Position numbers and translations under genes: made by a program
Origin: an uncultured Gammaproteobacteria bacterium
GTDB taxonomy: Bacteria > Patescibacteriota > Microgenomatia > UBA8517
Assembly: GCA_964635715.1 (NCBI GenBank)
Contig: CAZWNZ010000001.1
Span: forward strand, 138,358-202,357
Direction: 5' to 3'
Length of the DNA stretch: 64,000 nucleotides
Shown here: in pieces, positions 6,186 through 61,959 of the stretch
Numbering within the stretch: position 1 is the first letter of the stretch
Layout: every line of letters starts with the position of its first letter
The notes under the pieces: generated by a model
What the model was told of the DNA's origin: nothing
Database searches by the model: none
Seen by the model: the letters and a program-made list of their open reading frames with translations, nothing else

Positions 6186-6550
6186 GTGGAGACGGCGGGA
6201 ATCGAACCCGCGTCCGAAAATACTATAAACAATACTTCTACAAGCTTATTAGATCTTTTTTTATTTTCTTTTAATTTAAGTCGATCTACAAACAATCAAA
6301 AGTAAGGCTAATTTAGTTTCAGCTACTAGCTATCAGCCGTTAGCTATTAGTTATATCCCGGATTGGTTTACACCCTTTTGATCCGGCCGAGATTCAGATC
6401 TAAGGACGCAACTTAAGCGTACGCTACTGCGTAGTTAGGTTGGGCTTGGAATAAATTCCTAGCTTTTATTTTTTAATCCCTTTTGACAAGTGATGATCAA
6501 ACTTGGCTTGCTGTATTGTAAAGAGCTCTCCGTCGAAACCGATCGTCCCC
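6186..6550 (-). ncRNA. ssrA: tmRNA (SsrA)
   Basis: The reverse strand reads 5' GGGGACGATCGGTTTCGACGGAG... and ends ...GGACGCGGGTTCGATTCCCGCCGTCTCCAC. The acceptor stem is GGGGACG/CGUCUCC with a G3:U pair. An internal frame reads ...AQPNYAVAYA followed by a stop, which fits a tag peptide. smpB is adjacent. Confidence 0.8.
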
Positions 6551-6618
6551 AAAAAATATTACCAATTTCAAATTCCAAATAAATACAAATTTCCAATTGG
6601 GCATTGGTATTTATTGGA

Positions 6619-7065
6619 TTATTTGTACTTATTGGTACTTATTTTCAACTCTCTTTCAATATCACGATTGATATCGTGGCGTCTAATACTTTCCTTCTTT
6701 TGGAACTTGCGCTTGCCTTTACCAAGCTCAAGATAAATCTTAATTAGACGGCCTTTATTATACACTCTAAGAGGAACGATCTGCAATTTTTTCTGCTTCA
6801 TTTTTGTGATTAGTGATAATATTTCAGATCGGTGTAAAAGGAGTTTTCTCATGCGTGTCGAGTCATACTTTTGGATGCCCTGTGCAGGTATATTTGCATT
6901 AATCAGGTAGGCTTCGTCTTTCAAAATTCTAATTGCTGCCTGAGAAATATCAGCTCTTCCTTCACGCACAGATTTGGCCTCGGCTCCTAAAAGAGAAACG
7001 CCTGCTTCAACACCCTCACCTGTAAGTTCGTATTCAAATTTAGCCTTTTTGTTAACTATTTTCAT
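6619..7065 (-). CDS. smpB: SsrA-binding protein SmpB
   Basis: MKIVNKKAKFEYELTGEGVEAGVSLLGAEAKSVREGRADIS...RMRKLLLHRSEI matches SmpB, and the gene sits next to the tmRNA. Confidence 0.9.
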   Translation of the reverse strand: MKIVNKKAKFEYELTGEGVEAGVSLLGAEAKSVREGRADISQAAIRILKDEAYLINANIPAQGIQKYDSTRMRKLLLHRSEILSLITKMKQKKLQIVPLRVYNKGRLIKIYLELGKGKRKFQKKESIRRHDINRDIERELKISTNKYK

Positions 7066-7792: not shown

Positions 7793-8155
7793 ATTGAAAT
7801 CGATTTATATAATGATATAATCCCTTCCAGAGCTGGAAATTCGGAAAACCCTGAGAGGTGGCTAGTTTGATCATCACGCCTTGTCTGACAATTGCGTCAG
7901 TACATATATTTAAAGTGATGGAACAAGCTCAAGGTTCGATTCCTTGTAGGGTGAAGAGGGTTTTCTAAAGACGCGCAGAATAGGTGGGAGGCTATGATAG
8001 TGTGATGAAGGTCACAAAGGAGCCGTCAATGAAATACTACCCCCTTTAGTTTTAAGAAATTATAAAAAAATACCCGATCACGTTTTCCAGCTCCACCCTC
8101 TTTCTCTCCAATTAAGCAGTAATTACGTTCCATTTTTGATATAATGATCGAGCTT
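7793..8155. other. 360-nt non-coding region with tRNA-like T-arm and a 10-nt long-range complementarity (candidate structured RNA)
   Basis: Contains GGTTCGATTCC (7938-7948). GAGCTGGAAA (7833-7842) is the exact reverse complement of TTTCCAGCTC (8073-8082). No ORF longer than the spurious track entries. Confidence 0.3.
8137..8145 (+). promoter_or_regulatory. Extended -10 element TGaTATAAT upstream of tRNA-Ser
   Basis: TGATATAAT lies 10 nt before the tRNA 5' end. The same style occurs upstream of tRNA-Asn (17767-17775) and tRNA-Ile (62899-62907). Confidence 0.5.
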
Positions 8156-8239
8156 GGAGGATATGCCGAGCGGTTAAGGCAATTGTTCGCTAAACAATGT
8201 CGCGCAAGCGACCGACAGGTTCGACTCCTGTATCCTCCG
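8156..8239 (+). tRNA. tRNA-Ser (type II; anticodon probably GCU, C at position 33 is unusual)
   Basis: GGAGGAT...Ser-type D-arm GCCGAGCGGTTAAGGC, long variable arm, T-arm ACAGGTTCGACTCCTGT, acceptor ATCCTCC plus G. CCA is not encoded. Confidence 0.7.
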
Positions 8240-8244
8240 CCCAT

Positions 8245-8326
8245 GGTGGGCGGGCAGGACGGTAATGCGCGGGTCTTGAAAACCCGTGGGAGCAATCCCT
8301 AACAGGTTCGACCCCTGTGCCCACCG
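8245..8326 (+). tRNA. tRNA-Ser(UGA)
   Basis: GGTGGGC..., anticodon loop CTTGAAA, long variable arm, T-arm ACAGGTTCGACCCCTGT, acceptor GCCCACC plus G. Confidence 0.8.
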
Positions 8327-8345
8327 CACTTCTTTGTTTTATCAA

Positions 8346-8359
8346 CTTCTGTTATAATA
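8346..8359 (+). promoter_or_regulatory. Conserved promoter-like box CTTCTGTTATAATA (extended -10), copy 1
   Basis: An identical 14-mer recurs at 10056-10069. Here the TATAAT ends 6 nt before the ATG at 8365, which implies a leaderless mRNA. Confidence 0.5.
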
Positions 8360-8364
8360 CGCAT

Positions 8365-8913
8365 ATGGAATCTGCCTCCAATCCTGCCGATAGCACATTA
8401 AATGGGGAACCACAGGCAGTGGTCGTAAGAAGAGAAGCAGAACGTGATATTATCACCTGGGTAGCTCCAGCAAGACCTTTTAAAAGGTATGGTAGAAAAT
8501 TTTATGTCACCGTTTTTTCCATAATCGGAATTATCGGTATAATTTTTTTTATAGCTGAAGGCATTATGCCAGTGATACTTTTAATTTCCCTAACCTTTTT
8601 ATTTTATGTTTTGTCTACTGTTCAGCCTGAAAATATTGAATATAAGATAACAAACAGAGGGGTTAAAATTGCAGGTAGAGAAACACCTTGGCAAAGTTTG
8701 GTCAAATTTTGCTTCTCACAGAAATCCGGGAGTGATGTTTTGGTATTTGAGATGATTCCACTTCCCGGTAGAATGGAACTTGTCGTAAAGTCTGAAATTA
8801 AAGAAAGTCTCAGAAAGGAAATCTCCGCGTATATTCCATACGAGGAAATTCCACCCTCCTTTTTAGACAAAATTTTAAACTGGATTGTTAAAAAACTACC
8901 TGAGAACGATTGA
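8365..8913 (+). CDS. Hypothetical 2-TM membrane protein
   Basis: The ORF-track start at 8317 overlaps tRNA-Ser. The ATG at 8365 (MESASNP) follows the -10 box. Two central hydrophobic helices. Confidence 0.5.
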   Translation: MESASNPADSTLNGEPQAVVVRREAERDIITWVAPARPFKRYGRKFYVTVFSIIGIIGIIFFIAEGIMPVILLISLTFLFYVLSTVQPENIEYKITNRGVKIAGRETPWQSLVKFCFSQKSGSDVLVFEMIPLPGRMELVVKSEIKESLRKEISAYIPYEEIPPSFLDKILNWIVKKLPEND

Positions 8914-8936
8914 GAGTCTTACTCTGCAAAGTATTA

Positions 8937-9008
8937 GCGCCTGTAGCTTAATGGATAGAGTTGAGCCTTGCGGAGGCTTAGGTCCCAGTTCAACTCTGGG
9001 CAGGCGCA
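8937..9008 (+). tRNA. tRNA-Arg(GCG)
   Basis: GCGCCTG TA GCTTAATGGATAGAGT (Arg-type D-arm), anticodon arm GAGCC-TTGCGGA-GGCTT, T-arm CCCAGTTCAACTCTGGG, acceptor CAGGCGC plus A. Confidence 0.7.
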
Positions 9009-9013
9009 CTCAA

Positions 9014-9095
9014 GGTGGGTGGGCGGGACGGTAACGCGTTGGTTTCGAAAACCAATTCTCGCAAGGGATAACAAGTTCGACTCTTGTACCCACCG
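9014..9095 (+). tRNA. tRNA-Ser(CGA)
   Basis: GGTGGGT..., anticodon loop TTCGAAA, long variable arm, T-arm CAAGTTCGACTCTTG, acceptor ACCCACC plus G. Confidence 0.8.
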
Positions 9096-9110
9096 CTAAG
9101 AATTAAAAGT

Positions 9111-9563
9111 ATGAATAGTAAAAATAATCAGCAAATTTTAATAGGTGGAGCCATTGTTTTTAAAGACAATCGTGGCAAACGCCAATTTCTTTTGGTGAAA
9201 ACAAAAGAAGATGGGGATTGGGAAATTCCCAAAGTTACCGTTAGACGTGGAGAATCTTCTGTGCGTGCCGTTATAAGACTTACAGGAGAACAAGGTGGAA
9301 TTACTGCCAGAGTATTAGAAGAAGCGGGAAGATATTCCGGAAATGCCATTATCAACGGAAACTCCATGCCTCAAAAACATTATTATTATTTAATGCTTCA
9401 AAAGGGGGGATCAAGCGAATTGATAGGCTTCCAGAATTTTAAGTGGATGGACGCGGTTAACGTAAACAAAAAACTGGATTCGAAAAAAGAGAAAGAAATG
9501 TTTAAGTCGGCGCGTGACGTATTAAAAGAGTGGGAAACAACACACAAGGTAAAAACATACTAA
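9111..9563 (+). CDS. NUDIX-fold protein with degenerate Nudix box
   Basis: GESSVRAVIRLTGEQGG loosely resembles GX5EX7REUXEEXGU. The ORF-track start at 9084 overlaps the tRNA; the ATG at 9111 is used. Confidence 0.5.
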   Translation: MNSKNNQQILIGGAIVFKDNRGKRQFLLVKTKEDGDWEIPKVTVRRGESSVRAVIRLTGEQGGITARVLEEAGRYSGNAIINGNSMPQKHYYYLMLQKGGSSELIGFQNFKWMDAVNVNKKLDSKKEKEMFKSARDVLKEWETTHKVKTY

Positions 9564-10042
9564 CCCGTGAGTTCTCTTCCGGAGGCGTGGTGTACAAAAG
9601 ATCAGGAAATAAAATATTTTGGTTGATTCGAAAAACAATGGTGAGTGACTTATTTCCTGAGTGTTATTGGATGCTGCCCAAGGGCTGGTTGGATGATGCC
9701 GGAGACGGAATGCCTGGCCCAATGGCTTCAGGCAGGAAAAAAGCGGATGAAAAAACACTCCAGAAAACAGCAATAAGAGAAGTCGAGGAAGAAACGGGTG
9801 TTAATGCGAAAATTGTAGGCAAAATCGAAACAGCAAAATATTTTTACACTCATCCACAGAGAGGGAGAATATTAAAATTTGTTACATTTTATCTTATGGA
9901 ATGGACCCGTGATTTACCTGAAGGTTTTGACGGAGAAACGTCAGAAATTGACTGGCTTCCGTTTGAAAATGCATCGAAAAAGTTGTCTTTTGATAAGGAA
10001 AGAGAAGTTTTAAGTAACGCTTACAAATTATTACCTCATTAA
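9530..10042 (+). CDS. NUDIX hydrolase
   Basis: Canonical Nudix box GRKKADEKTLQKTAIREVEEETGV. Confidence 0.75.
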   Translation: MGNNTQGKNILTREFSSGGVVYKRSGNKIFWLIRKTMVSDLFPECYWMLPKGWLDDAGDGMPGPMASGRKKADEKTLQKTAIREVEEETGVNAKIVGKIETAKYFYTHPQRGRILKFVTFYLMEWTRDLPEGFDGETSEIDWLPFENASKKLSFDKEREVLSNAYKLLPH

Positions 10043-10055
10043 TCCAATCAAGTAG

Positions 10056-10069
10056 CTTCTGTTATAATA
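10056..10069 (+). promoter_or_regulatory. Conserved promoter-like box CTTCTGTTATAATA, copy 2, upstream of tRNA-Ser(GGA)
   Basis: Exact repeat of the 8346-8359 box. TATAAT ends 12 nt before the tRNA. Confidence 0.5.
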
Positions 10070-10080
10070 TGCCTACAATT

Positions 10081-10165
10081 GGAGGAGTCGCCTAGTGGCC
10101 TATGGCACGGGTTTGGAAAACCCGGACTCGCAAGAGTCTCGTGAGTTCGAATCTCACCTCCTCCG
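10081..10165 (+). tRNA. tRNA-Ser(GGA)
   Basis: GGAGGAG TC GCC TAGTGGCCTAT GGC, anticodon arm CGGGT-TTGGAAA-ACCCG, long variable arm, T-arm GTGAGTTCGAATCTCAC, acceptor CTCCTCC plus G. Confidence 0.8.
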
Positions 10166-10349
10166 CAAATAAAATTTGCGTTGGATCTGCGATTCGGTAC
10201 TGGGGTATAAGTGTGTACGGCGAATCTCACTTCCTCCGCTCGTCAGAGCAAGACTTTGTCGCTTCATTCCGACCATGTCGGAATGTTCGCTGCTTTTAGT
10301 CTGCTCTTCCTCTCAAAATTGCTTAGCAATTTTGTTGACACAAGAACAC

Positions 10350-17792: not shown

Positions 17793-18069
17793 TCCCCGGT
17801 AGCTCAGCGGTAGAGCGGATTCCTGTGATTTCTTAGCAGCTCTTAAAGGAAACTTTAAGATGAAAACTGGGAGAATTGCGTGAAGCCCCTGTCATTTTGA
17901 CGAGGTAACCCGCAGCCGAGCCCTAATAAAAATTAGGGAAGGTTCAGAAACTATGTACCCAGACACCTCGTTTATTCTGTAAACAAGTGCAAGATATAGT
18001 TCCGCGTCCCACAGAAATGTGGGGGAGCGAGTAAGAATAAGGTCGCTGGTCCGAATCCAGCCCGGGGAG
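17793..18069 (+). tRNA. tRNA-Asn(GUU) interrupted by a 205-nt intron in the anticodon loop
   Basis: 5' exon TCCCCGG TA GCTCAGCGGTAGAGC G GATTC CTGT (17793-17826). 3' exon TAA GAATA AGGTC GCTGGTCCGAATCCAGC CCGGGGA G (18032-18069). Spliced anticodon loop is CUGUUAA. U1-A72 and discriminator G are typical for bacterial tRNA-Asn. Confidence 0.7.
17827..18031 (+). ncRNA. Group I-like self-splicing intron inside tRNA-Asn
   Basis: Exon ends in U and intron ends in G. Exon CUGU can pair with intron GCAG (P1 with a U-G wobble at the splice site). P2 hairpin CTCTTAAAG-GAAA-CTTTAAGA. P3 pairing GACGAGGT/ACCTCGT. GCCGAGCC and GAAGGU core-like segments. Terminal hairpin CCCACA-GAAA-TGTGGG. Size matches the small IC3-type tRNA introns. 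Confidence 0.6.
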
Positions 18070-18106
18070 CACTTCGGCAAGCTCAGTGCAAGCACAATTT
18101 TTGACA

Positions 18107-48229: not shown

Positions 48230-48929
48230 ACAAATGAGAAAACTTGCAAGCCCCTTTGTTTTGATTAAAAAATCCTGGGAAATTTTTTCGATTAAAAAAA
48301 ACTTAGTTACCTTAGTACAATTGTATTTACCATTAGGATTAGTGTCGCTAATATCGTTATTGTTTGTTAAAATCCCGTTTTTATCTGATTTTTTAAAAAC
48401 CGACAATGGAAACACTGTTGTTGTCGCATTAGATCTTCTTTTTGCTGTGGTATCTGTTTTTGTTGGACTTGCCGGGATAATTGCAATTATCGAGATTACT
48501 AATGGTAAAAGCGTTCAGGTAAAGAAAGTTTTTAAACAAGCTACTTCAAAATTCTGGAAATATTTTCTTCTAGTGTTTGTTACCGGTCTGATATATGTAT
48601 TTGGTTCGATTTTACTAGTGTTCCCTCTAATATTATTTTTAACCTGGTTTGCCTTTGGCAGGTTTATATTTGTAGAGAATGGAACCGGAATTAAATCTTC
48701 GCTTCTGGAGAGTAAAAAAATGGTTAAGGGAATTTTCTGGAAAGTTTTTGCGAGACTTCTTGTTTTTGGAATTTTTTCCTTATGTATGGAAATCACTTTT
48801 GGAATGTTACCTCTAGGAATCGGGGATGTTGCCCTAAGGCTTTTGAGTGGTTTTTTCCTGATTCCGCAATATCTTCTTTACAGAGAGATCCTTTCGGGTA
48901 AAGAGCCTTCAAAAAACGAAATAGTTTAA
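48213..48929 (+). CDS. Polytopic membrane protein (hypothetical)
   Basis: About six hydrophobic helices. Confidence 0.4.
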   Translation: MKKQIRQMRKLASPFVLIKKSWEIFSIKKNLVTLVQLYLPLGLVSLISLLFVKIPFLSDFLKTDNGNTVVVALDLLFAVVSVFVGLAGIIAIIEITNGKSVQVKKVFKQATSKFWKYFLLVFVTGLIYVFGSILLVFPLILFLTWFAFGRFIFVENGTGIKSSLLESKKMVKGIFWKVFARLLVFGIFSLCMEITFGMLPLGIGDVALRLLSGFFLIPQYLLYREILSGKEPSKNEIV

Positions 48930-51157
48930 CGGTTGAATTCTGTACTGACTCCTGAATCTAAAATTTGGTTTTTGTTTTTTTGATTTGAGTTTAAAGTATC
49001 TTGCTTTATGATGCAGTGTTTGTTTGGAATATTTTCATCCAGAAACCATTCTTGTTTAGTGATACATCCGTTACATGGAAGGGTTCCTGTTATAGAACAA
49101 ATGTTAACTTTACTCACACCTTCCGGAATCTCCCAGTCAATAGAGGTTTGACCATTTAGTAGTGTCGACATGATTTTATTCCAAATAGGTGAAGCGCCGG
49201 TTACTCCGGAAGCAATTCGTGACATGGGAGAGTTATCATTGTTTCCAACCCAAGCTAATACCAAATAATTTTGGTTGTAGCCAATCGTCCAATTATCTCT
49301 AAGATCATTGCTGGTTCCGGTTTTTACGGCAACTTCCGGGTGATTTTTAACAACAAGATAAGAGTTGCTTCCAAATTCCGGTGTGCGGGCAAAGTTGTCT
49401 TTTAAAATATCAGTCAGAAGAAAAGCAATTCGGGGGTCGATTGTTTGCTGTACATAAGGATTATTTTTTTCCAAAATTTCTCCTTTATAGTTTTTTACCT
49501 CCAAAATTGGCATGAGCTCCGGTGTCTTGCCTGAGTTTGCTAATGTAGCATAAACTTTAGATAATTCGAGCGCCTTAACAGCTCCACCACCGAGGGTTAG
49601 AGACAAACCGTAGTTACTTGGGTCTCCCCATGTTGTTATTCCCATACTCTGGCCTTGTTCAATCATCTTGTTAACACCATACGAAGCCAGGACTTTTACA
49701 GCAGGAATATTGCGGCTTTCTGCCAGAGCGTTTCTCAGACTGATATTGCCGCGATACTTACCATCGTAGTTAACGGGAGAATAGGGGGTTGTACCTGCTG
49801 CATAAAAAGTTATTGGTGAGTCATCAATAATTGAAGCCGAAGTATACCCGTTTGATAAGGCGTATGTGTAATTTACTATTTTTATAGAACTTCCGGGTTG
49901 TCTGAGACTATTCAACACATTTACATTTCCGTCATTTTCTATATCAAAATAGTCTTTGGAACCTACCATTGCCAGGATTTCACCTGTCTGCGGATTAACT
50001 ACGAGCGCAGCCCCGTTTCCTACATTTAGTTTTTCCAGCTTTTTAATTTCATCGGCAACTATTTCCTGCCCTATTTCCTGGATAGATAAATCAAGACTGG
50101 TGGTCACTTCTAAGCCCCCTTTTTCCACAATATCTTCACCGTATTTATCGACAAGAATTTGTCTTACGTACATTACAAAATGAGGAGCTTTAATTTCGGT
50201 TTTTTTGGACGTAAAATAAATCTCCTTATTCGCAGATTCAATCGCCTGATCTCTGGTTATGTATTTATTAATTACCATGAGATTTAATATTTCCCTTTGT
50301 CTTTCAAAGGCTAATTCCGGATTTGAACCAAAAGGAGAGTATGTGGTTGGACTTTTAGGAAGACCTGCCAAAAGTGCTGATTCAGCTAAATCAAGATCTT
50401 CTACATTCTTTCCAAAATAATAATCTGCAGCTTCTTTTATACCATACGCAGTTCCTCCATAACTGACCTCATTTAGATACATTTCGAATATTTCGTCTTT
50501 GGTATATAAGGCTTCGATTTCGATAGATAAAATTATTTCCCTAACCTTTCTTATTATTGTCTTTTCGGGGGTTAGTAAAGTATTTTTAACCAACTGTTGG
50601 GTAATTGTTGAGCCTCCCTGTAAAGAACCTGTTTTAATATCCTGTACCATTGCTCGAAATATTCCTCTTACAGAAAAACCCGGATGTGTATAAAATTCGG
50701 CATCCTCGGCGGCTAGGGTAGCTAAACGTATTGTCTGCGGAATTTGTGCAATTGGGATAATTGTCCTGTTCTCATCTTTGTAGATCTTATAAAGCAGTTC
50801 TCCATTCCTATCATAAATTTTTGTCGATACTTCAGGAATTCTTGATGCAAGCTCTTTTGGTGATGGCATATCTTTTAGAATAAAAAAGTAAAATAAGGAA
50901 CAAATTAACAAAAGTACGGCACAAAAAATGGCAAATCCATATTTGCGCCTTGGATAAAGTTTCTTTCTTTCCTTACCTTTTTTAAGCAGAGGTTTTTTAT
51001 TTTTTTGTAATTTATCTGATTTCTTTTTATGCCCTGGTTTGAGTTTAATTAAACTGAGTTTTTTAATAGTCAAAACGGGTAAAATGGTTAAACCAAAAAG
51101 AAGAAAATATATAGGTTTTCCAATCAATGCCAATACCCGTTTTACCGTCTTAATCAT
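48926..51157 (-). CDS. Class A penicillin-binding protein (PBP1A family), copy 1
   Basis: GT51 motifs EDAEFYTHPGF and GGSTITQQLVKN. Transpeptidase motifs SSIK, SNG and KTGT. Confidence 0.85.
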   Translation of the reverse strand: MIKTVKRVLALIGKPIYFLLFGLTILPVLTIKKLSLIKLKPGHKKKSDKLQKNKKPLLKKGKERKKLYPRRKYGFAIFCAVLLLICSLFYFFILKDMPSPKELASRIPEVSTKIYDRNGELLYKIYKDENRTIIPIAQIPQTIRLATLAAEDAEFYTHPGFSVRGIFRAMVQDIKTGSLQGGSTITQQLVKNTLLTPEKTIIRKVREIILSIEIEALYTKDEIFEMYLNEVSYGGTAYGIKEAADYYFGKNVEDLDLAESALLAGLPKSPTTYSPFGSNPELAFERQREILNLMVINKYITRDQAIESANKEIYFTSKKTEIKAPHFVMYVRQILVDKYGEDIVEKGGLEVTTSLDLSIQEIGQEIVADEIKKLEKLNVGNGAALVVNPQTGEILAMVGSKDYFDIENDGNVNVLNSLRQPGSSIKIVNYTYALSNGYTSASIIDDSPITFYAAGTTPYSPVNYDGKYRGNISLRNALAESRNIPAVKVLASYGVNKMIEQGQSMGITTWGDPSNYGLSLTLGGGAVKALELSKVYATLANSGKTPELMPILEVKNYKGEILEKNNPYVQQTIDPRIAFLLTDILKDNFARTPEFGSNSYLVVKNHPEVAVKTGTSNDLRDNWTIGYNQNYLVLAWVGNNDNSPMSRIASGVTGASPIWNKIMSTLLNGQTSIDWEIPEGVSKVNICSITGTLPCNGCITKQEWFLDENIPNKHCIIKQDTLNSNQKNKNQILDSGVSTEFNR

Positions 51158-51210
51158 TGTTTCGCGAATTGTACCTCCGGAGCCTTTTCAATTCAATACA
51201 TAGAGCCAAA

Positions 51211-53424
51211 TTAGTAATGTAGAGTAGCTGAGGCAGAAGCAATTGGGCATGACAAGCAAAATATGGTTCCATTTGGGTCTGTATATATGGTTTTATTTTC
51301 TGTATGTATCTGGTCGGCAGGATCAGTAGGGGAAGCTATCTGTCCTGTGGCATTGTTGATAGAAATATCTTGATTAATTACGTTAACCGCTGATGGAACA
51401 GTTCCCTCCAAAAAGTATTCAAATCTTGTTGCACAGCCAGGATTGGCAGGATCTTGCGATGGAGAAGCACCACCCGTGTCCGCGCATATTGTTGCACCAA
51501 CAACACCATCAGGTTGCTTCGGCCAGGAATGACCTTTTTCATTTTCGTCATAAGCGCCGCTCTCTGCTTTATCTAAAACTGCTTTCATAATTTTGTTCCA
51601 AATTGGTGATGCACCGGATATTCCTGATACGGCTCCACCCATCGAAGAATTATCGTTATTTCCCACCCAGGACACAACAACAGCGTTAGATGTATAACCA
51701 ACGGTCCAATTGTCGCGTCTGTCGTTTGTTGTCCCTGTTTTGACGGAAACTTCAGAGTGTCCTGATACATTTAAATAAGAGCTTGATCCAAAGGCAGATG
51801 ATCTGGCATTGTTGTCGTAAAGTATGTGAGAGACTAGAAACGTAACACTGGGATCCAAAACTCTTGTTCCAGTCAGGCTATTTTCAGATGGATTATATTC
51901 CAAGATGGTGTTTCCTTTCCAATCAGTGACTTTGGTTATGGCTACAAGCGGTTGTCTGACACCACTGTTTGCAAAAACCCCGTAAGAGACTGCCATGTCA
52001 TATGGTGTAACTAAAAGTCCACCAAGAGTTGCGGAAAGACCGTAGTCAGATGCGTCGGTAATGGTAGTAAGACCCATTTCCTTGGTAAATTCAATAAAAT
52101 TCTTCACACCATTCAAGGCTAGTATTTTGACAGCAGGAATGTTGTAAGAGTTTCCAAGGGCGAATCTTGTTTGTACTAGCCCATGATATATTCCATCGTA
52201 ATTTACCGGGCAATAATTAGTTTGACCTGCAACTTGAAAACAGGTCGGAACATCAGCGAAGGTTGTTGCCGGTGTAATTTTTTGGTCTCTCAGAGCCAGC
52301 GCATAATTTAGAGGTTTTATTGAACTGCCTGGTTGTCTTTGGGCCAGCACGACATTAACTTTTCCGTCCTCATCGGTAGCAAAGTAATCCTTTGAACCAA
52401 CCATGGCCAGAATTTCTCCTGTCGACGGCCTGGTTACTATAGCCGCCCCATTTCCGACTTTTTGCTTCTTAAGTTTAGCTACTTCGGAGGCAACAGTCTG
52501 CTGTGCTAAATTTTGGATTTCCAAATCGAGCGTTGTATAAACTCTTAAACCTCCCTGTTCTACCATTTTTTCTCCGTATTCGTTCGCGAGCTGCTCTTTA
52601 ATCCAAAGGGCAAAATGTGTTGCCTGATCGGATCCTGCTGTAACATATTTCAGTTCTTTGTCATATGCAATATCTGCTTCTTCCTGGGAAATATAACCAT
52701 TGGCAACCATTTGCTTAAAGACCTCTTGTTGTCGGTTTTTGGCAAGTTCCGGGTGGGCACCGAATGGAGAATATGTAGAAGGTCTTTGGGGCAATCCGGC
52801 CAGTAGTGCGCTTTCGGCAAGATCTAAATCTTTTGTAGATTTTCCAAAATAAGTTTCGCTGGCTGCTTCAATACCGTAAGCAGTGCCACCATAGGGGATA
52901 GAGTTGAGATACATTTCTAAAATTTGATCTTTGGAGTATATTGATTCAATTACTACTGTTAATACCAATTCTTGAGCCTTTCTTCTAATGGTTCGCTCAT
53001 TGGATAGGAGTGAATTTTTAACCAGTTGCTGAGTCAAAGTTGAACCACCCTCTGCACGCCCTTGAGTAATTGTTTTTGATAATCCTCTCACTATTCCTAA
53101 AATGTCCACACCCTGATGCTTATAAAAATTTTTGTCTTCAATTGAAATTGTTGCCCATTTTAAATATTCAGGCACTTCATTTATGTCTATTGGGGTTCTT
53201 TTTTCATCCGTGTATATCTCGTAAATCAGTGTCCCGTTGCGATCAAAAATCTTTGTCGATACCGGAAGTGACTCAGATATTGCCCAGGTAAAGATCGGAA
53301 TTCCCCAAAAAAGATAAAGACAAACCGTTAATATTGTTCCCCAGAAGAAAATAGCCTTAATACCACGCTTGGTACTTAATAAGAGATTTATCTTTTTACC
53401 AACTATGATTGCAAATTTTTTCAT
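51211..53424 (-). CDS. Class A penicillin-binding protein (PBP1A family), copy 2
   Basis: GT51 motifs EDKNFYKHQGV and GGSTLTQQLVKN. Transpeptidase motifs SSIK, SYN and KTGT. Confidence 0.85.
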   Translation of the reverse strand: MKKFAIIVGKKINLLLSTKRGIKAIFFWGTILTVCLYLFWGIPIFTWAISESLPVSTKIFDRNGTLIYEIYTDEKRTPIDINEVPEYLKWATISIEDKNFYKHQGVDILGIVRGLSKTITQGRAEGGSTLTQQLVKNSLLSNERTIRRKAQELVLTVVIESIYSKDQILEMYLNSIPYGGTAYGIEAASETYFGKSTKDLDLAESALLAGLPQRPSTYSPFGAHPELAKNRQQEVFKQMVANGYISQEEADIAYDKELKYVTAGSDQATHFALWIKEQLANEYGEKMVEQGGLRVYTTLDLEIQNLAQQTVASEVAKLKKQKVGNGAAIVTRPSTGEILAMVGSKDYFATDEDGKVNVVLAQRQPGSSIKPLNYALALRDQKITPATTFADVPTCFQVAGQTNYCPVNYDGIYHGLVQTRFALGNSYNIPAVKILALNGVKNFIEFTKEMGLTTITDASDYGLSATLGGLLVTPYDMAVSYGVFANSGVRQPLVAITKVTDWKGNTILEYNPSENSLTGTRVLDPSVTFLVSHILYDNNARSSAFGSSSYLNVSGHSEVSVKTGTTNDRRDNWTVGYTSNAVVVSWVGNNDNSSMGGAVSGISGASPIWNKIMKAVLDKAESGAYDENEKGHSWPKQPDGVVGATICADTGGASPSQDPANPGCATRFEYFLEGTVPSAVNVINQDISINNATGQIASPTDPADQIHTENKTIYTDPNGTIFCLSCPIASASATLHY

Positions 53425-55291: not shown

Positions 55292-55500
55292 AAGCTTCTA
55301 TTGCTGTATTTTTTTGTACTGTTTTTTACTGGTCAAAAAAGTCCAAAAAAATATCTCCGCAAAAACTTCAGGAATTATTAAATACCCAGGCGTGGCTCAT
55401 GCTTAGGTTGATACATTTTGATTAAAAACTTGCCAGTTGACAGTCCAGCTGTAGTGTCGGACAATCGAAATCGTCACTAACTGTAGAGTATTTACTTTAC

Positions 55501-55959
55501 ATGTGTGAAATATTAAAAAGCATGAAATGTCCTTTTTGCGGCAAGGCCGACACAAGCGTTTTAGAAAGCAGGACGGTTGAAGACAGTGCTATTAGAAGAC
55601 GTAGGGAGTGTGCGAAATGCGGAAAACGTTTTACAACAATAGAGGCAGTTAAAAAAAGTTTTTTGTGGGTAATCAAAAAAGATGGTAGACGTGAGGTTTT
55701 TGAAAAAGAAAAGATAAAAAGGGGAATACTCAGAGCCATTGAGAAAAGACCGGTTTCCTTGGAATTGGTTGATGACATAGTCGATCAGGTGGAAAAAGAG
55801 ATGCTCAGAAGTGACAAACAGGAAATTACCACCAGAACGATCGGAAGTGCAGTCTTGAAAAGATTGAAAAAAATAGATAAAGTTGCCTGGCTCAGATTTG
55901 CAAGTGTTTATTTGGAATTTGAAGACTTGAGCGATTTTGAAAAACTTATTGAAAAGTGA
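55501..55959 (+). CDS. nrdR: Transcriptional repressor NrdR
   Basis: Zinc ribbon CPFCG...CAKCGKRF and ATP-cone domain. Confidence 0.9.
   Translation: MCEILKSMKCPFCGKADTSVLESRTVEDSAIRRRRECAKCGKRFTTIEAVKKSFLWVIKKDGRREVFEKEKIKRGILRAIEKRPVSLELVDDIVDQVEKEMLRSDKQEITTRTIGSAVLKRLKKIDKVAWLRFASVYLEFEDLSDFEKLIEK
55901..55957 (+). repeat. 57-bp direct repeat, copy 1 (the nrdR 3' end)
   Basis: CAAGTGTTTATTTGGAATTTGAAGACTTGAGCGATTTTGAAAAACTTATTGAAAAGT, identical to 56150-56206. Confidence 0.85.
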
Positions 55960-56149
55960 AAAGAACTTTAAAAGAACAATTTACTCGGTAATACTTTTTC
56001 GAAACCAGCATCCGGTGTTTTCTTTAAATGATTGTTTTGTCTGCCGGTGCTTGCGATCTCGACCGCCATAATATTTTTATTAAAAACGAAAAAATCCTAA
56101 GCGGTCTGCGATAGCTTTCTCAAAAGTACCGCCTCGATATTGTTCTTTA

Positions 56150-56206
56150 CAAGTGTTTATTTGGAATTTGAAGACTTGAGCGATTTTGAAAAACTTATTG
56201 AAAAGT
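56150..56206 (+). repeat. 57-bp direct repeat, copy 2 (immediately upstream of nrdJ)
   Basis: Perfect copy of 55901-55957. It would encode the same SVYLEFEDLSDFEKLIEK tail, ending in TAA instead of TGA. Confidence 0.85.
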
Positions 56207-56219
56207 AAGAAAAATAAAA

Positions 56220-58685
56220 ATGGCATTACAAACAACGAAAATAAAAAAAACAATTACCAAGCATAAGTTACCGGTTAAACCTATCTACAAAAACGGTGAG
56301 ACAAAAATTACCCTTGATGGTTTAATTGCTCCAAGCTATGAAGAAATAATGACAGAAGTTAAAAAGAAGGTAGGAGAAAGACCGGCAATGGATAAAAGCT
56401 TACCAAAAGGAGTTTGGACGGAGCAGTCAATGAAGGTACTGACAGAAAGATATCTCAGAAAGGATGAGGATTTAAAGCCCACTGAAGAACCTGAAGATTT
56501 GGCTTGGAGGGTCGCTTGGGAAATGGCTTCTGCCGAAGTTCGGTGGGGAGCAAAGAAGAAGGATGTAGAGGAGACTGCAAAAGATTTTTATAGACTGATA
56601 GTTTCCAGGCAATTTTTGCCAAACTCTCCAACGTTAATGAACGCCGGTACAAGAAATGGACTTCAGTATTCAGGATGTTTTGTTTTGCCGGTGGATGATT
56701 CGATGGAGGGTATATTTGATGCTATAAAATATCAGGCAATAATTCATAAAACGGGCGGCGGAACAGGTTTTTCGTTTAGTAGGCTTAGAGAAAATGGGTC
56801 GCGTGTAAAAACTTCTTCCGGTATTGCCTCCGGACCCGTTTCGTTTATGAGAATTTTTGATGCGGCTACAAACGAAGTTAAACAAGGTGGTAAGAGAAGA
56901 GGCGCAAATATGGGGATCCTCAGAGTTGATCATCCGGATATTTTGGAGTTTATTCACTGCAAAGAGAGTGGGGGAATAACAAATTTTAATATCTCTGTGG
57001 CAATTACAGATAATTTTATGGATGCTTATTACAAAAATGAAGAATACGAACTTATTAGCCCTAAAACGAAAACGGTAATTGGCAAACTTTCTGCTAAGAA
57101 GGTTTTTGATGAAATTGCCGAGCTTGCTTGGAAAACCGGGGATCCCGGGCTTATTTTTATAGATAGGATAAATAATGGAGCCGCCAACCCGATTCCGGCG
57201 TTAGGTCCGATAGAATCCACAAACCCTTGTGGCGAACAGCCTTTATATCCGTACGATGTTTGCAACCTTGGTAGTATTTTTCTGACGTATTTTATTAAAG
57301 ATGAGGGTGGCAAAAAAGACGTTGATTGGGAGAAATTAAAATATGTAACTCATCAGGCTGTAAGGTTTTTGGATGATGTTATCGAAGTTAATCCTTTTCC
57401 GCTTCCTCAAATAAGAAAAATGGCTTTCAATATCCGAAGGATTGGCCTTGGAGTCGGAGGTTGGAGTGATATGCTTATTTCTTTGGGAATTCCGTATGAC
57501 AGCAATGAGGCACTTGCCTTGGCCGAGAAAGTAATGAAATTTATTAACGACGAGGCCACTCTTGCTTCTGAAGAATTGGCTAAAACACGCGGGCCATTTT
57601 TCCTTTGGCCGGTATCAATATATCGCAATGAGACTCCCAGAAGAAATGCGGCAATTACAACAATTGCTCCAACAGGATCAATTTCCATAATTGCAGGTGC
57701 AAGTTCCGGCATTGAACCTATGTTTGCCATTGCTTACCAACATATTGTTCGCGACAAACATTTAGATAGAAAGCTTTCTTTTATTAATCCTGAATTCGAA
57801 AAAATAGCAAAAGACAGGGGTTTTTGGACAGAAAGTTTGATGGATAAAGTTGCAGAGAAGGGAGTTGTCAGAGAAATTACGGAGATACCTGGAGATGTAA
57901 GAAAGATATTTGGAACCGCACACGAAATTGATATCGATTGGCATATTAAAATGCAGGAATCATTCCAGAAATACACTAACAACGCTGTCAGTAAAACGAT
58001 AAATCTTAGACATGACGCTACAATAGAAGATGTTAAAAAATCCTATCTTGCTGCCTGGGAAGGTTGTTGCAAGGGAATTACTATTTTCAGGGACGGGAGT
58101 AAGGGTGAACAAGTTTTAAATCTTGGCTTGAACAAAAAAGAAGAAATAAAAGAAGTTGAAGCAGCAGCAACACAGGTTGTATTGGAAAGACCGATGAAAG
58201 TCGAAGGTGCAACTTACAGAATCCCGACCCCTTTGGGGGTTTCCTTTATTACAGTTAATCAGGATTCTCAAGGTAATCCTTTTGAGGTTTTTATAACTAT
58301 TGGTAAAGCAGGGAGTGAGGTCGCAGCGATGGCAGAAGCTTTAGGGCGCATGATTTCTACAACTTTAAGATTTGGAAATCATAAACCGGCGCTTGAACGC
58401 GCCCGTGAGATAGTTGATCAACTTAGAGGTATAGGTGGGGGACGATCTGTGGGATTTGGACCAAATAAAATAAGGTCTCTTCCCGATGCGGTTGCTAAGG
58501 CAATTTCAATGCACTTTGGATTTAATAATGTCAATCATGATACTGAAACACAATCTAACATAGGACAGGTTGGCGGAGACGACACTAAAGTTGTTGGAGA
58601 TATCTGTCCCTCTTGTGGATCTCCTGCTCTTGTTTTTCAAGAAGGTTGCTCCAAGTGTCACGCCTGCGGTCACTCTGAATGTTAA
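56220..58685 (+). CDS. nrdJ: Ribonucleoside-triphosphate/diphosphate reductase, class II (adenosylcobalamin-dependent)
   Basis: TLMNAGT, GCFVLPVDDSMEGIF, GGGTGFSFSRLR and the C-terminal CPSCG...CHACGH zinc finger. Confidence 0.9.
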   Translation: MALQTTKIKKTITKHKLPVKPIYKNGETKITLDGLIAPSYEEIMTEVKKKVGERPAMDKSLPKGVWTEQSMKVLTERYLRKDEDLKPTEEPEDLAWRVAWEMASAEVRWGAKKKDVEETAKDFYRLIVSRQFLPNSPTLMNAGTRNGLQYSGCFVLPVDDSMEGIFDAIKYQAIIHKTGGGTGFSFSRLRENGSRVKTSSGIASGPVSFMRIFDAATNEVKQGGKRRGANMGILRVDHPDILEFIHCKESGGITNFNISVAITDNFMDAYYKNEEYELISPKTKTVIGKLSAKKVFDEIAELAWKTGDPGLIFIDRINNGAANPIPALGPIESTNPCGEQPLYPYDVCNLGSIFLTYFIKDEGGKKDVDWEKLKYVTHQAVRFLDDVIEVNPFPLPQIRKMAFNIRRIGLGVGGWSDMLISLGIPYDSNEALALAEKVMKFINDEATLASEELAKTRGPFFLWPVSIYRNETPRRNAAITTIAPTGSISIIAGASSGIEPMFAIAYQHIVRDKHLDRKLSFINPEFEKIAKDRGFWTESLMDKVAEKGVVREITEIPGDVRKIFGTAHEIDIDWHIKMQESFQKYTNNAVSKTINLRHDATIEDVKKSYLAAWEGCCKGITIFRDGSKGEQVLNLGLNKKEEIKEVEAAATQVVLERPMKVEGATYRIPTPLGVSFITVNQDSQGNPFEVFITIGKAGSEVAAMAEALGRMISTTLRFGNHKPALERAREIVDQLRGIGGGRSVGFGPNKIRSLPDAVAKAISMHFGFNNVNHDTETQSNIGQVGGDDTKVVGDICPSCGSPALVFQEGCSKCHACGHSEC

Positions 58686-58760: not shown

Positions 58761-59255
58761 ATGTCTATTTATACAAAAATGGGGGACAAAGGAGAGACGA
58801 GAACTTTAGAGGGTAAAGTCATTTCCAAATCTTCAAAATTAATTAACGCAATCGGATCCATTGATGAGTTGAACTCACTCTTGGGAATTATAGGCGGATT
58901 GGAAAATGTACAATTTGAACTATTCACTATAAATGCCATTTTGGCAGGCAGTAAACTCAAGTTTACTAAACCAAAAATCACAAAATTAGAAAAAGAAATC
59001 GATTCTTTGGAAATAGTCTTACCTAAACAAAAGAACTTTATTCTTTATGGTGGGGACCCGAAGGCTGCAATGTTTTTTTATGCAAGAAGTGTTTGCCGTC
59101 GTGCCGAATGTTCACTTGTATCTTTGTCTGATTCACAATTTAAAATTTCCGACTCAATATTGGCTTATATAAACAGGCTTTCAGATTACCTTTATATAAA
59201 AGGTAGGGAAGCAAACTTCAAAGCTAAAATTTCAGAAAAGGCTTGGAACAGATAG
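58761..59255 (+). CDS. ATP:cob(I)alamin adenosyltransferase, PduO-type
   Basis: MSIYTKMGDKGETRTLEGKVISKSSKLINAIGSIDELNS matches the TKTGDxGxT...DELN signature. Confidence 0.8.
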   Translation: MSIYTKMGDKGETRTLEGKVISKSSKLINAIGSIDELNSLLGIIGGLENVQFELFTINAILAGSKLKFTKPKITKLEKEIDSLEIVLPKQKNFILYGGDPKAAMFFYARSVCRRAECSLVSLSDSQFKISDSILAYINRLSDYLYIKGREANFKAKISEKAWNR

Positions 59256-59625: not shown

Positions 59626-61959
59626 ATGTTAACCGCAGAAGTAAATTATTCAGGCATTATTGTGGCTGTTGTTTTGGTGACTGCCGCAGTTTTCTCCTTG
59701 GTTCTTTTGGGCTATTCACTTTTTATTTATTTTAAAAACAGAGATAGGGAAAAAAGATCTTTAGATTCGGTACTTTTACAGGTTGCTCTTCCCAGAAATA
59801 ACGAAACAAAAATCGATGTGATGGAACAACTTTTTGCCAGTATTTATTCAATTAAAAAAGGAGGATGGAAGCAAAAGTTCTCCATTCAGCCAACAATTTC
59901 CTTTGAAATAGTAGCTAAACGTGAGGACATACGTTTCTATGTTTGGGCTCCAACAAAGCTTAAGGATTTGGTTGAAAAACAAATAAATGGTGCATACCCA
60001 GAAGCTGAAATTTTAGAAGTTGATGAATACAATATTTTTGACGAAAAAGGCAAAGTTGCTTACAAGTCATTTCAATTAGGGAAAAGCAATTTTTACCCAT
60101 TAAAAACTTTTAAAGATCTGGCTACCGATCCGATGCTTGGAATTACTTCTGCCTTAGCCAAAATGGGAGAGTCGGACGCAGCCGTTATCCAAATTGTTTT
60201 AACTCCGACTGAAAGCGATTGGCAAAAGGCAGGCGGGAAATTTATATCTGATATCAAAAAACAAGAGAGTGATGCTGAACATGCAAAATTCTCAACATCC
60301 GGCAAAACTTTGGACGCGATTGAAGGAAAAGTCTCCAAACCAGGGTTTGAAACATCAATAAGAATATTGGCCGTTTCGGAAGACGAGGAAACTGCAAAAA
60401 GCACAGTAGCCAATATCAGTAGCTCTTTTGCTCAATTTGCGGGAGACCTAAACAGTCTTAAAAGTAGAAAGATTTATAGGAAAGCTTCGTTTATGGAGGA
60501 ATTTCTTTATCGATATCAACCGATGTTTAATATTTTTAAAAATCATGTGTCAATATTAAATTCAGAAGAGTTGGCTTCAATCTATCATTTTCCGAATAAG
60601 CAGGTTACCACGCCGCATATTTTTTGGTTGAATGCTAAAACCGCTCCTGCGCCAAGTCAAATTCCAACAGAAGGCCTTTATCTTGGAATGAGTAATTACA
60701 GGGGAATTAAAAGACCAGTTTATTTAAGCAACAAAGATAGAATGCAGCATATCTACATTATTGGAAAGACGGGAGTTGGAAAATCAGAGCTTCTTAAGGA
60801 TTTGATATTGCAAGATATTAGGGCAGGTAAGGGAGTCTGTTTTATGGATCCCCATGGTGATGCAGTGGAAGATATTTTAAAACTTATCCCTCCCGAAAGG
60901 GCAGAAGATGTTATCTACTTCAATCCAAGTGATGTCGAACGTCCTATTGGAATGAATCTTTTGGAGGCGAGAACCGAAGATGAAAAACATTTTGCTGCGA
61001 CATCAATAATAAACCTCATGTACAAACTTTTTGATCCTTATAAAACCGGAATAGTCGGGCCACGTTTTGAGCATGGAGTTAGAAATGCCATGTTGACAGT
61101 CATGAGTGAGCCTGGAAATACTTTTGTGGAAATTATGAGAGCCATGACGGATTCTTCGTATGTTCAAAAACTTCTTCCCAAAGTTACTGACCCAATTGTC
61201 AGGCGCTATTGGACTGATCAGATTGCTCAAACTTCCGATTTCCACAAATCAGAAGTTTTAGACTACACAGTTTCCAAATTTGGGCGTTTTGTTACAAACA
61301 AGCTTATAAGAAACATAATAGGACAATCTCAAAGTTCTTTTGACATGAGAAAAGTTATGGATGAAGGAAAAATTTTACTTATTAATCTAGCCAAAGGATC
61401 TTTGGGAGAGGAGAATAGCAACTTTTTGGGGCTCCTTCTTGTTCCAAGAATATTGATGGCAGCTATGAGTAGGTCAAACTTGGCAAAAGAACAAAGAAAA
61501 GATTTTTACTTTTATGTTGACGAGTTCCAGAATTTTGCCACACCCGATTTTGCAGTAATTTTGTCTGAAGCTAGAAAGTATGGGTTAGGACTTTGTGTTG
61601 CTAATCAGTTTATCGGTCAGGTTGAGGAAGAGGTTAAAAATGCAGTTTTCGGAAATGTCGGAACTCTGATCTCCTTTAGAGTAGGTGTAACAGATGCGAA
61701 CTACTTACAACATGAATTTACACCAACTTTTGGTGAAGATGATTTATTAAATGTAGAGCGTTATCATTCTTATTGTAAAACTATTGTTAATAACGAACCT
61801 GTTCCGCCATTCTCCATGGATATGAGTAAGGACATGAATAAGCAAAAAGCCGAAGAAAATGAGCGTGTGGCGGAGATAATTAAAGAAATGAGCAGACTTA
61901 AATATGGTAGAGATGAAAAATTGGTTGAAGCGGAGATAACAAGAAGAAGCAATCTATAA
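59626..61959 (+). CDS. TraG/VirD4/TraD-family (type IV coupling protein-like) membrane-anchored P-loop ATPase
   Basis: N-terminal TM, Walker A YIIGKTGVGKSELL, DPHGD, Walker B YFYVDEFQNF and ARKYGLGLCVANQ. Confidence 0.55.
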   Translation: MLTAEVNYSGIIVAVVLVTAAVFSLVLLGYSLFIYFKNRDREKRSLDSVLLQVALPRNNETKIDVMEQLFASIYSIKKGGWKQKFSIQPTISFEIVAKREDIRFYVWAPTKLKDLVEKQINGAYPEAEILEVDEYNIFDEKGKVAYKSFQLGKSNFYPLKTFKDLATDPMLGITSALAKMGESDAAVIQIVLTPTESDWQKAGGKFISDIKKQESDAEHAKFSTSGKTLDAIEGKVSKPGFETSIRILAVSEDEETAKSTVANISSSFAQFAGDLNSLKSRKIYRKASFMEEFLYRYQPMFNIFKNHVSILNSEELASIYHFPNKQVTTPHIFWLNAKTAPAPSQIPTEGLYLGMSNYRGIKRPVYLSNKDRMQHIYIIGKTGVGKSELLKDLILQDIRAGKGVCFMDPHGDAVEDILKLIPPERAEDVIYFNPSDVERPIGMNLLEARTEDEKHFAATSIINLMYKLFDPYKTGIVGPRFEHGVRNAMLTVMSEPGNTFVEIMRAMTDSSYVQKLLPKVTDPIVRRYWTDQIAQTSDFHKSEVLDYTVSKFGRFVTNKLIRNIIGQSQSSFDMRKVMDEGKILLINLAKGSLGEENSNFLGLLLVPRILMAAMSRSNLAKEQRKDFYFYVDEFQNFATPDFAVILSEARKYGLGLCVANQFIGQVEEEVKNAVFGNVGTLISFRVGVTDANYLQHEFTPTFGEDDLLNVERYHSYCKTIVNNEPVPPFSMDMSKDMNKQKAEENERVAEIIKEMSRLKYGRDEKLVEAEITRRSNL

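Follow-up and report, generated by a model that had tools for sequence, protein, structure and literature searches.

What is the insert that separates nrdR from nrdJ in the 64,000-nt stretch of contig CAZWNZ010000001.1 analyzed here (hereafter the window), and how did it come to lie between two identical copies of the end of nrdR? It is a structured non-coding operon insertion outside any named family, found again with the same arrangement in one other, distantly related species. Our preferred reading, a tentative one that we place somewhat short of an even chance, is that it is a selectively maintained intercistronic element of ∼190 nt with a single origin.

The upstream gene (55522..55959, + strand) encodes a 145-residue protein that begins MKCPFCG and ends at a TGA codon at 55957–55959. 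A match to TIGR00244 (172 bits, cut-off 125) identifies the product as NrdR, Pfam recognizes its Zn_ribbon_NrdR and ATP-cone domains, and alignment shows that the start codon at 55522 is kept in relatives. The downstream gene, nrdJ (56220..58685, + strand), encodes an 821-residue adenosylcobalamin-dependent class II ribonucleotide reductase that matches NF006417 at 1019 bits (cut-off 961) and TIGR02504 at 676 bits, with Pfam matches as well. The last 57 nt of nrdR, through the first base of its stop codon (repeat copy R1, 55901..55957, + strand), recur with 57 of 57 nt identical at 56150..56206 (repeat copy R2, + strand), where the next two bases, AA, complete a TAA stop. Taken as 60-nt units that include the stop codon, R1 and R2 agree at 58 of 60 positions, the differences being the first base (G versus A) and the stop (TGA versus TAA). 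In frame, R2 would read TSVYLEFEDLSDFEKLIEK*, and it ends 13 nt before the nrdJ ATG at 56220; R2 and 56209–56219 together rebuild the native sequence that lies directly 5′ of nrdJ in relatives. The next-best self-matches of the nrdR-nrdJ repeat region within the window are 17 nt or shorter (BLAST), and a perfect 57-nt repeat in 64 kb therefore cannot be chance.

Between the two copies lies the insert itself (55958..56149, + strand), with a G+C content of 36% like that of the window. It carries CCGGTG at 56012–56017 and again at 56044–56049, GACCGC at 56061–66, and GCGGTC at 56101–06, and each of these pairs forms the stem of a predicted hairpin. An earlier, sequence-only reading had described the identical 57-nt duplication, the 13-nt gap to the nrdJ start, the in-frame second copy that ends in TAA where the first ends in TGA, and both sets of motifs, all of which self-comparison of the window bears out. 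Its figure of 190 nt for the insert holds when the count starts after the nrdR TGA, but the distance between the copies is 192 nt. As a separate observation, 17 bases of the nrdR repeat (TTTATTTGGAATTTGAA) also occur at 6567–6583 on the − strand (blastn-short, E ∼0.001), between an open reading frame (ORF) of smpB size (6619–7065, − strand) and the tmRNA gene (6186–6550, − strand); this match is probably chance in AT-rich DNA.

Comparison with relatives established how restricted the arrangement is. In ∼55 Microgenomates nrdR-nrdJ loci of the same synteny, the intergenic distance ranges from −4 to +44 nt, with no insert and no repeat. The contigs with the closest NrdR proteins (91% identity; L001–L008, L015, L038, and L093) have an nrdR-nrdJ spacing of 0–44 nt and share the gene order penicillin-binding protein (PBP), HEPN-like, Rce1-like, DUF5667, nrdR, nrdJ, adenosyltransferase. 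A scan of species-representative genomes returned 80 loci, ∼40 of them from Microgenomates with an nrdJ-type gene, and the spacer in these ranges from an overlap to a few tens of bases with the sole exception of locus L013. Among 101 nrdR loci scanned within 2.5-kb flanks, a second copy of the nrdR tail was found only in L013 and in its second assembly, L089. In every relative, a short A-rich stretch separates the stop codon from ATGGCATTACAAAC; in the window this native junction is formed by R2 and its 3′ flank, and the stop of R1 runs directly into the insert. The alignment with relatives' nrdR-nrdJ junctions that the sequence-only reading had proposed as a check thus shows the insert to be lineage-restricted, as relatives with NrdR proteins of 85–91% identity have spacers of 0–44 nt and no repeat. 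When further carriers were sought through the NrdR proteins of relatives, all relatives obtained were without the insert. One candidate carrier, L099 (771–1007), was rejected when its unusual junction turned out to be an unrelated contig break: this ENA contig has the same NrdR as L096–L100, and its nrdJ stops ∼60 nt in and becomes an unrelated minus-strand ORF, which probably reflects a contig chimera or a rearrangement and has no connection with the insert. Separately, in five loci from more distant Patescibacteria (L016, L021, L022, L025, and L039), a reductase gene begins ∼360–490 nt after nrdR with no duplicated nrdR tail, and its product is 22–25% identical to NrdJ, which points to another class of reductase or to a long extension at the N terminus.

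The second carrier, L013, is a GTDB representative metagenome-assembled genome whose NrdR is 85% identical to that of the window and whose nrdR-nrdJ spacer measures 257 nt. Its layout is nrdR, a ∼195-nt insert directly past the stop codon, a second copy of its own nrdR tail, and nrdJ; the window insert (55958–56149) is homologous to positions 2939–3135 of L013. The two repeat copies of L013 differ at 2 of 54 positions (6 of 60 over the longer unit). L089 (metagenome contig AMFJ01005520), recovered with a conserved 20-mer of the insert (GCGGTCTGCGATAGCTTTCT), represents the same locus and differs from L013 by four single-nucleotide polymorphisms (SNPs) in 5.4 kb, none of which falls within the repeat-insert-repeat segment. 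Because a distantly related species has the same arrangement, the comparison indicates that the element is real and conserved and neither an artifact nor a fresh accident. The sequence-only reading had called it a recent insertion or duplication; an insertion plus a duplication, restricted to a lineage, it is, but “recent” does not stand as the sole reading, since the second species carries a homologous insert in the same place, with its own duplicated tail, at a divergence where synonymous sites are nearly saturated. Accordingly, the architecture would be an old one that has been maintained, or else a site-specific process would have created it more than once.

The conservation of the insert was measured against sites expected to be neutral. 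Between the window and L013, 38.5% of nrdJ 4-fold-degenerate sites are identical, which is near saturation for the base composition, whereas 102 of 114 positions of the insert core are identical (89.5%; P ∼2e-23 against a neutral expectation of 45%, deliberately generous relative to the measured 38.5%). Within the insert, paired columns are 95% identical and unpaired core columns 75%, and the two hairpin loops are 48% identical, with indels (46% for loop A and 50% for loop B). Since the helices are this similar while the loops are scrambled and neutral sites are almost saturated, the comparison argues that the insert is under purifying selection, or was until recently, and in the fold model the contrast between helices and loops indicates that the selection acts on a three-way-junction fold.

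The predicted fold was derived from single-sequence foldings and a two-species consensus, and the features are given here without a strand. The conserved folded core spans 55973..56146. Its closing helix pairs 55973–55980 with 56139–56146 (AGAACAAT/ATTGTTCT), and inner helices (55987–89 with 56131–33, 55994–98 with 56122–26, and 56001–04 with 56116–19) lead to a three-way junction. From the junction extend hairpin A (56007..56051), whose stem AGCAUCCGG/CCGGUGCU includes both CCGGTG motifs, and hairpin B (56053..56115), whose stem includes GACCGC and GCGGTC; neither loop is conserved between the species. The junction is predicted alike in the window and L013, as a closed domain with hairpins A and B. 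The consensus contains 41 pairs, all standard in both species, and three one-sided changes and one two-sided change preserve pairing. In 370 nt of context the domain is predicted to fold independently and to leave the nrdJ start unpaired.

Searches for a known identity or a coding function of the insert returned nothing. The window and L013 inserts, both strands, had no match in Rfam 15 (cmscan, E≤10), which covers cobalamin and other riboswitches, 6S, SRP, RNase P, group I and II introns, ribozymes, HEARO, and other families. A whole-window cmscan at the gathering threshold likewise places nothing in the insert, although it does recover the tmRNA, tRNAs, and a group I intron of the window. 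No ORF in the insert is conserved across both species, and none of seven candidate small ORFs was found in the protein collection. A leader peptide that ends at the R2 stop and couples nrdJ was considered and rejected: a TTG start is available in the window, but in L013 the frame is shifted and has no start. An origin by local tandem duplication plus deletion was rejected as well, with only short A-rich similarity to nrdJ, nrdR, and the flanks. Literature searches combining nrdR with Patescibacteria or attB found nothing relevant.

The repeats bear on the history of the element through a lockstep between the copies. Over 60 nt, R1 and R2 agree at 58 positions in the window and 54 in L013, whereas any pairing of a window copy with an L013 copy agrees at only 45–48. 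At nine of the positions that differ between the species, both copies in each genome carry that species' own base. In L013 the mismatches between R1 and R2 are concentrated at the repeat edges, as expected under gene conversion because conversion cannot repair repeat ends. NrdR residues 111–140 are the most conserved part of the protein (86–99% amino-acid identity in 30 relatives). Extra synonymous constraint on the nrdR tail was rejected as the cause of the match between R2 and R1: where the amino acid is shared, codon identity in these relatives is 0.54 in the tail and 0.45 elsewhere, a difference that is too small. As the synonymous sites of the tail are under no special constraint, selection on R2 as the upstream region of nrdJ cannot explain the match either. 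The comparison leaves two accounts of the lockstep: either R2 has been recopied from R1, by gene conversion or by cycles of excision and re-entry via the repeat, or the two insertions were independent and are younger than the species split. Neighbor-joining trees of NrdJ and of NrdR plus NrdJ (26 taxa) group the two carriers, the window and L013, with L001, L009, L038, and L011 in a single six-taxon subclade, and these other four are without the element; L092, the closest NrdR relative of L013 (94%), is without it too. On these trees the history would comprise either one gain and at least three losses or two gains.

The better account, we infer, is that the element arose once, in a small subclade of Microgenomates. 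The carriers are confined to one subclade; the insertion point, directly past the stop, is essentially identical in both; the limits of the duplication are nearly identical; the L013 mismatches lie at the repeat edges; and the searches brought no further copy. Arrival of the element would have duplicated the last 57–60 nt of nrdR, with R1 retaining the conserved NrdR C-terminus and stop and R2 retaining the native sequence before the nrdJ start. Several descendants would have lost the element through recombination between the repeats, a loss that is easy and scarless since it restores the ancestral operon exactly, and at least two lineages would have kept it, with gene conversion holding R2 like R1.

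As for function, only a few bases separate the nrdR stop from the nrdJ start in relatives, an arrangement that implies co-transcription from the conserved promoter upstream of nrdR and probably translational coupling as well. No promoter or terminator in the insert is conserved in position or spacing in both species on either strand, and we therefore assume by default that the insert is transcribed along with the operon. The element would then be transcribed within the nrdR-nrdJ mRNA and fold between the cistrons into a closed, 175-nt three-way-junction domain that starts 11–13 nt past the nrdR stop and ends 1–3 nt before R2. Ribosomes ending at nrdR would be left ∼260 nt from the nrdJ start and nrdJ would be uncoupled from nrdR translation, so that the termination-reinitiation coupling of relatives would be broken and the repressor part of the message would change in stability or translation relative to the reductase part. 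R2 could provide ∼60 nt of weakly structured, A/U-rich ribosome landing region identical to the native upstream sequence, and the stable structure might act as an exonuclease barrier or a processing site that changes the repressor-to-enzyme ratio.

Several points weigh against this picture of a single, maintained, transcribed element. Single origin requires at least three precise losses within the subclade, and direct repeats of 57 bp that lie 249 bp apart should delete easily, yet long survival is required of them. Gene conversion between such short repeats is assumed. With two carrier species only, covariation is thin (one compensatory pair), and the helix sequences themselves are conserved, beyond what pairing demands. 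The minus strand is slightly favored thermodynamically, but stability and the G·U evidence given below conflict in the fold models, and either strand may be the folded one. The proposed regulatory effect, finally, is deduced from position.

The strongest competitor, which we regard as possible though on balance unlikely, is a non-autonomous, site-specific mobile element that targets the 3′ end of nrdR, inserts past the stop codon, and cuts with a stagger of ∼57–60 bp. The window and L013 would then hold independent, fairly recent insertions from diverged sources, each with a fresh duplication of host sequence, and the conserved helices would reflect recognition by a mobilizing enzyme, probably in the folded single strand. 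Repeats that match within a genome (58/60 and 54/60) and differ between genomes at 12–15 of 60 positions form the pattern of a target duplication. The distribution is patchy, with the nearest relatives of either carrier lacking the element (L001, L006, L038, and L093 at 91% for the window; L092 at 94% for L013), and the target, the most conserved NrdR segment, is the kind of site favored by homing or integrating elements. The subterminal inverted repeat is conserved in both species, and the instability of 57-bp repeats also fits independent insertion better than long retention. Long target duplications have precedent in IS1549 and IS1634, which create direct repeats of 8–514 bp (PMC2266710).

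What the mobile explanation lacks is copies and machinery. No second copy was found in the window by blastn-short, relaxed blastn, or a covariance model with filters off (the best noise match scored 16.9 bits, at 48897–48984), or in 52 related loci by the covariance model with filters off. A window-specific 23-mer, one base different from the L013 copy, had no match in genome and metagenome contig collections; in JGI metagenomes the conserved 20-mer had just one further true occurrence, at this same locus in the L013 species (L089), besides two chance GC-rich matches (L090 and L091). Viral collections including IMG/VR gave a single chance match (L094), and blastn against phage and plasmid sequences gave none. 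There is no transposase, integrase, or reverse transcriptase gene near the locus, where gene order is conserved; both carriers belong to one small subclade; and the near-identical insertion point and duplication limits would need a very precise mechanism, undescribed at such length. A broader form of this idea seems to us less probable again: that the element represents an undescribed class of protein-less, site-specific mobile elements of candidate-phyla-radiation bacteria, a ∼190-nt folded RNA or single-stranded DNA that homes to the conserved end of nrdR, duplicates ∼60 bp of its target, and leaves both flanking genes intact, or else cycles in and out through the repeats. In-and-out cycling would explain why the repeat copies stay alike within each host.

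Comparison with described elements yielded partial likenesses. Like the insert, REP/BIME, ERIC, and stem-loops derived from miniature inverted-repeat transposable elements (MITEs) are small folded non-coding insertions between cistrons of one operon, patchy across lineages and with a plausible effect on the stability or translation of the flanking cistrons. Unlike it, they form families of many copies whose target duplications are short or absent, whereas the insert is single-copy in the searches made, occupies one site, has a three-way junction, and is flanked by a coding duplication of 57–60 bp. As to the MITE idea of the sequence-only reading in particular, the insert is small and non-coding (192 nt, no conserved ORF). 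A conserved 8–10-bp inverted repeat is present; it lies ∼11–13 nt inside the left end and serves equally well as the closing helix. A duplication of 57–60 bp in the window and 54–60 bp in L013 far exceeds the short fixed length of MITEs (2–10 bp). In place of many copies, the metagenome collection shows the 20-mer a single time for each carrier species, and the second species is the only further copy that the scans of the window, the 52 related loci, and the collections produced; the idea accordingly lacks support.

IS1549 and IS1634 likewise show bacterial transposition giving direct repeats of tens of bp, but they are 1.5–2 kb long, encode a transposase, and have variable duplication lengths and no fixed target, whereas the insert has no ORF and sits at the same site with nearly the same duplication limits in two species. 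Integration of casposons or CRISPR spacers by Cas1 is staggered and duplicates the segment between two attack points, and with some casposons the duplicated segment is the 3′ end of a protein-coding gene, which stays intact. Casposon duplications, however, measure ∼14–15 bp and CRISPR integration duplicates one repeat, and the locus differs from both in having no cas1 gene, long terminal inverted repeats, or array. The template/variable pair of diversity-generating retroelements resembles the locus in having a repeat at a gene's 3′ end and a second copy a few hundred bases downstream. It was rejected because the copies show 0 of 57 differences in the window, those in L013 (C/T, A/G, and G/A) run in both directions and are not adenine-specific, the NrdR tail is 86–99% conserved and not hypervariable, and the conserved neighborhood has no reverse transcriptase gene. 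Hairpin loops acting as guides complementary to the repeat, in the manner of bridge RNAs, were rejected as well, the longest matches being no better than those of shuffled sequences.

A third possibility competes on function and could go with either account of the origin: the insert would be a small RNA gene in its own right, encoded on the minus strand and antisense to the nrd operon, and its flanks would show complementarity to the 3′ end of nrdR and to the leader of nrdJ. We consider it improbable, although the predicted fold of the minus strand is the more stable one in both species (−49.3 kcal/mol, z −3.5, versus −42.9 kcal/mol, z −2.6, for the plus strand in the window; −61.3 kcal/mol, z −5.7, versus −53.7 kcal/mol, z −3.3, in L013). 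The difference arises because a 12-bp helix is unbroken there: two A·C mismatches per species that interrupt it on the plus strand are G·U pairs on the minus strand, where two between-species substitutions are pairing-neutral, and only there. Three G·U pairs of the window plus strand, in contrast, become mismatches on the minus strand and point the opposite way. The consensus pair counts are nearly equal (41 on the plus strand versus 42 on the minus), the minus strand has no positionally conserved promoter- or terminator-like site, and Rfam offers no match.

Poorer still are the prospects of a functionless scar, in which attL and attR abut after a prophage or integrative element has lost its interior. 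Direct repeats of a target gene's 3′ end with the gene left intact are the signature of integrase-mediated insertion, and the insert plus one repeat, at 249 bp, is close in size to a complete phage attP. The resemblance extends to CIMEs, which keep attL and attR and have lost their genes (PMC5704250): here too the repeats restore the 3′ end of the target gene with frame and stop preserved, and the element lies directly downstream. But a scar would have been randomized by the time neutral sites are saturated, and the core is 89.5% identical (versus ∼38% at neutral sites) and the helices 95%, so that the 190-nt interior appears to be under purifying selection and not in neutral decay. The repeats follow the host sequence in both genomes, and nested helices that close into a junction are unlike recombinase arm sites. 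None of the 101 nrdR loci has a larger element at the site, a second nrdR tail occurs only in the carriers, and no related autonomous or full-length integrase-bearing element was found in these loci or in the viral, phage, and plasmid collections.

An assembly artifact, a loop or mis-join at the 57-nt repeat, which the sequence-only reading had raised, deserves almost no credence: the repeat is perfect, its length is near common de Bruijn k-mer sizes, and the protein collection contains the window's lineage only once, but a second species has a homologous insert in the same placement with distinguishable repeat copies that cannot be one collapsed sequence, in two separate assemblies with four SNPs elsewhere, and an artifact would not yield an orthologous, structure-conserving insert, so that for the architecture we take the matter to be disposed of.

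Upstream of nrdR and outside the insert, a putative operon control region (55437..55489, + strand) was delineated by a promoter scan and box comparison. It comprises a promoter-like TTGACA-17-GACAAT at 55437–55465 and two degenerate NrdR-box-like 16-mers at 55442–55457 and 55474–55489, with centers 32 nt apart; these were assigned by our own comparison with the published consensus, which they match at 10 and 11 of 16 positions, so that neither is within three mismatches. The block 55437–55510 is conserved in alignments with L001 and L006, and L013 has an equivalent promoter-like site. The canonical NrdR box (ACACWATATATWGTGT, up to three mismatches) has no match anywhere in the window, the insert included, in agreement with the sequence-only reading, which could find no clear NrdR-box palindrome; the NrdR box of this lineage therefore appears to be divergent.

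The window NrdR is identical to database protein P0001 and a singleton in the protein collection, and the nearest database proteins come from Microgenomates/Woesebacteria metagenome-assembled genomes. Its gene stands among those for PBPs, HEPN-like, Rce1-like, and DUF5667 proteins, NrdJ, an adenosyltransferase, and a TraG-like ATPase. The cobalamin adenosyltransferase gene lies 3′ of nrdJ at 58761–59255. Three kilobases 3′ of nrdJ, a 777-residue ATPase with TrwB/TraG (type IV coupling protein) and HerA-like domains is encoded at 59626–61959 (+ strand), preceded by a 113-residue ORF; as the gene seems to occupy a syntenic position in relatives, it probably does not belong to a mobile element in the window. 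On the other side, a tandem pair of class A PBP genes (48926–53424, − strand) encodes proteins of 742 and 736 residues with transglycosylase and transpeptidase domains, and L001 and L006 have at least one of these genes in the corresponding position. Farther away, a 208-nt group I intron (RF00028, 60.9 bits; 17817–18024) interrupts the anticodon loop of a tRNA gene at 17793–18083 (+ strand). ARAGORN misses the intact intron-bearing gene and calls a tRNA after removal of ∼17822–18024, the anticodon identity depending on the exact splice points. A tRNA cluster at 8155–10166 (+ strand) holds, within 2 kb, four tRNA-Ser (GCT, TGA, CGA, and GGA) and a tRNA-Arg(GCG), interleaved with ORFs.

In these tiny genomes nrdR and nrdJ normally form a tightly coupled two-gene unit, and ribonucleotide reductase is essential. 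A maintained, structured insert that splits the unit would, if the reading is true, represent a new way to tune repressor-to-enzyme expression in candidate-phyla-radiation bacteria, whose non-coding RNA is little known. The lockstep of a duplicated 57–60-nt coding sequence is unusual in bacteria, and it would reflect one of two things: gene conversion, in nature, across very short repeats, or an undescribed mode of site-specific insertion that leaves a very long target duplication.

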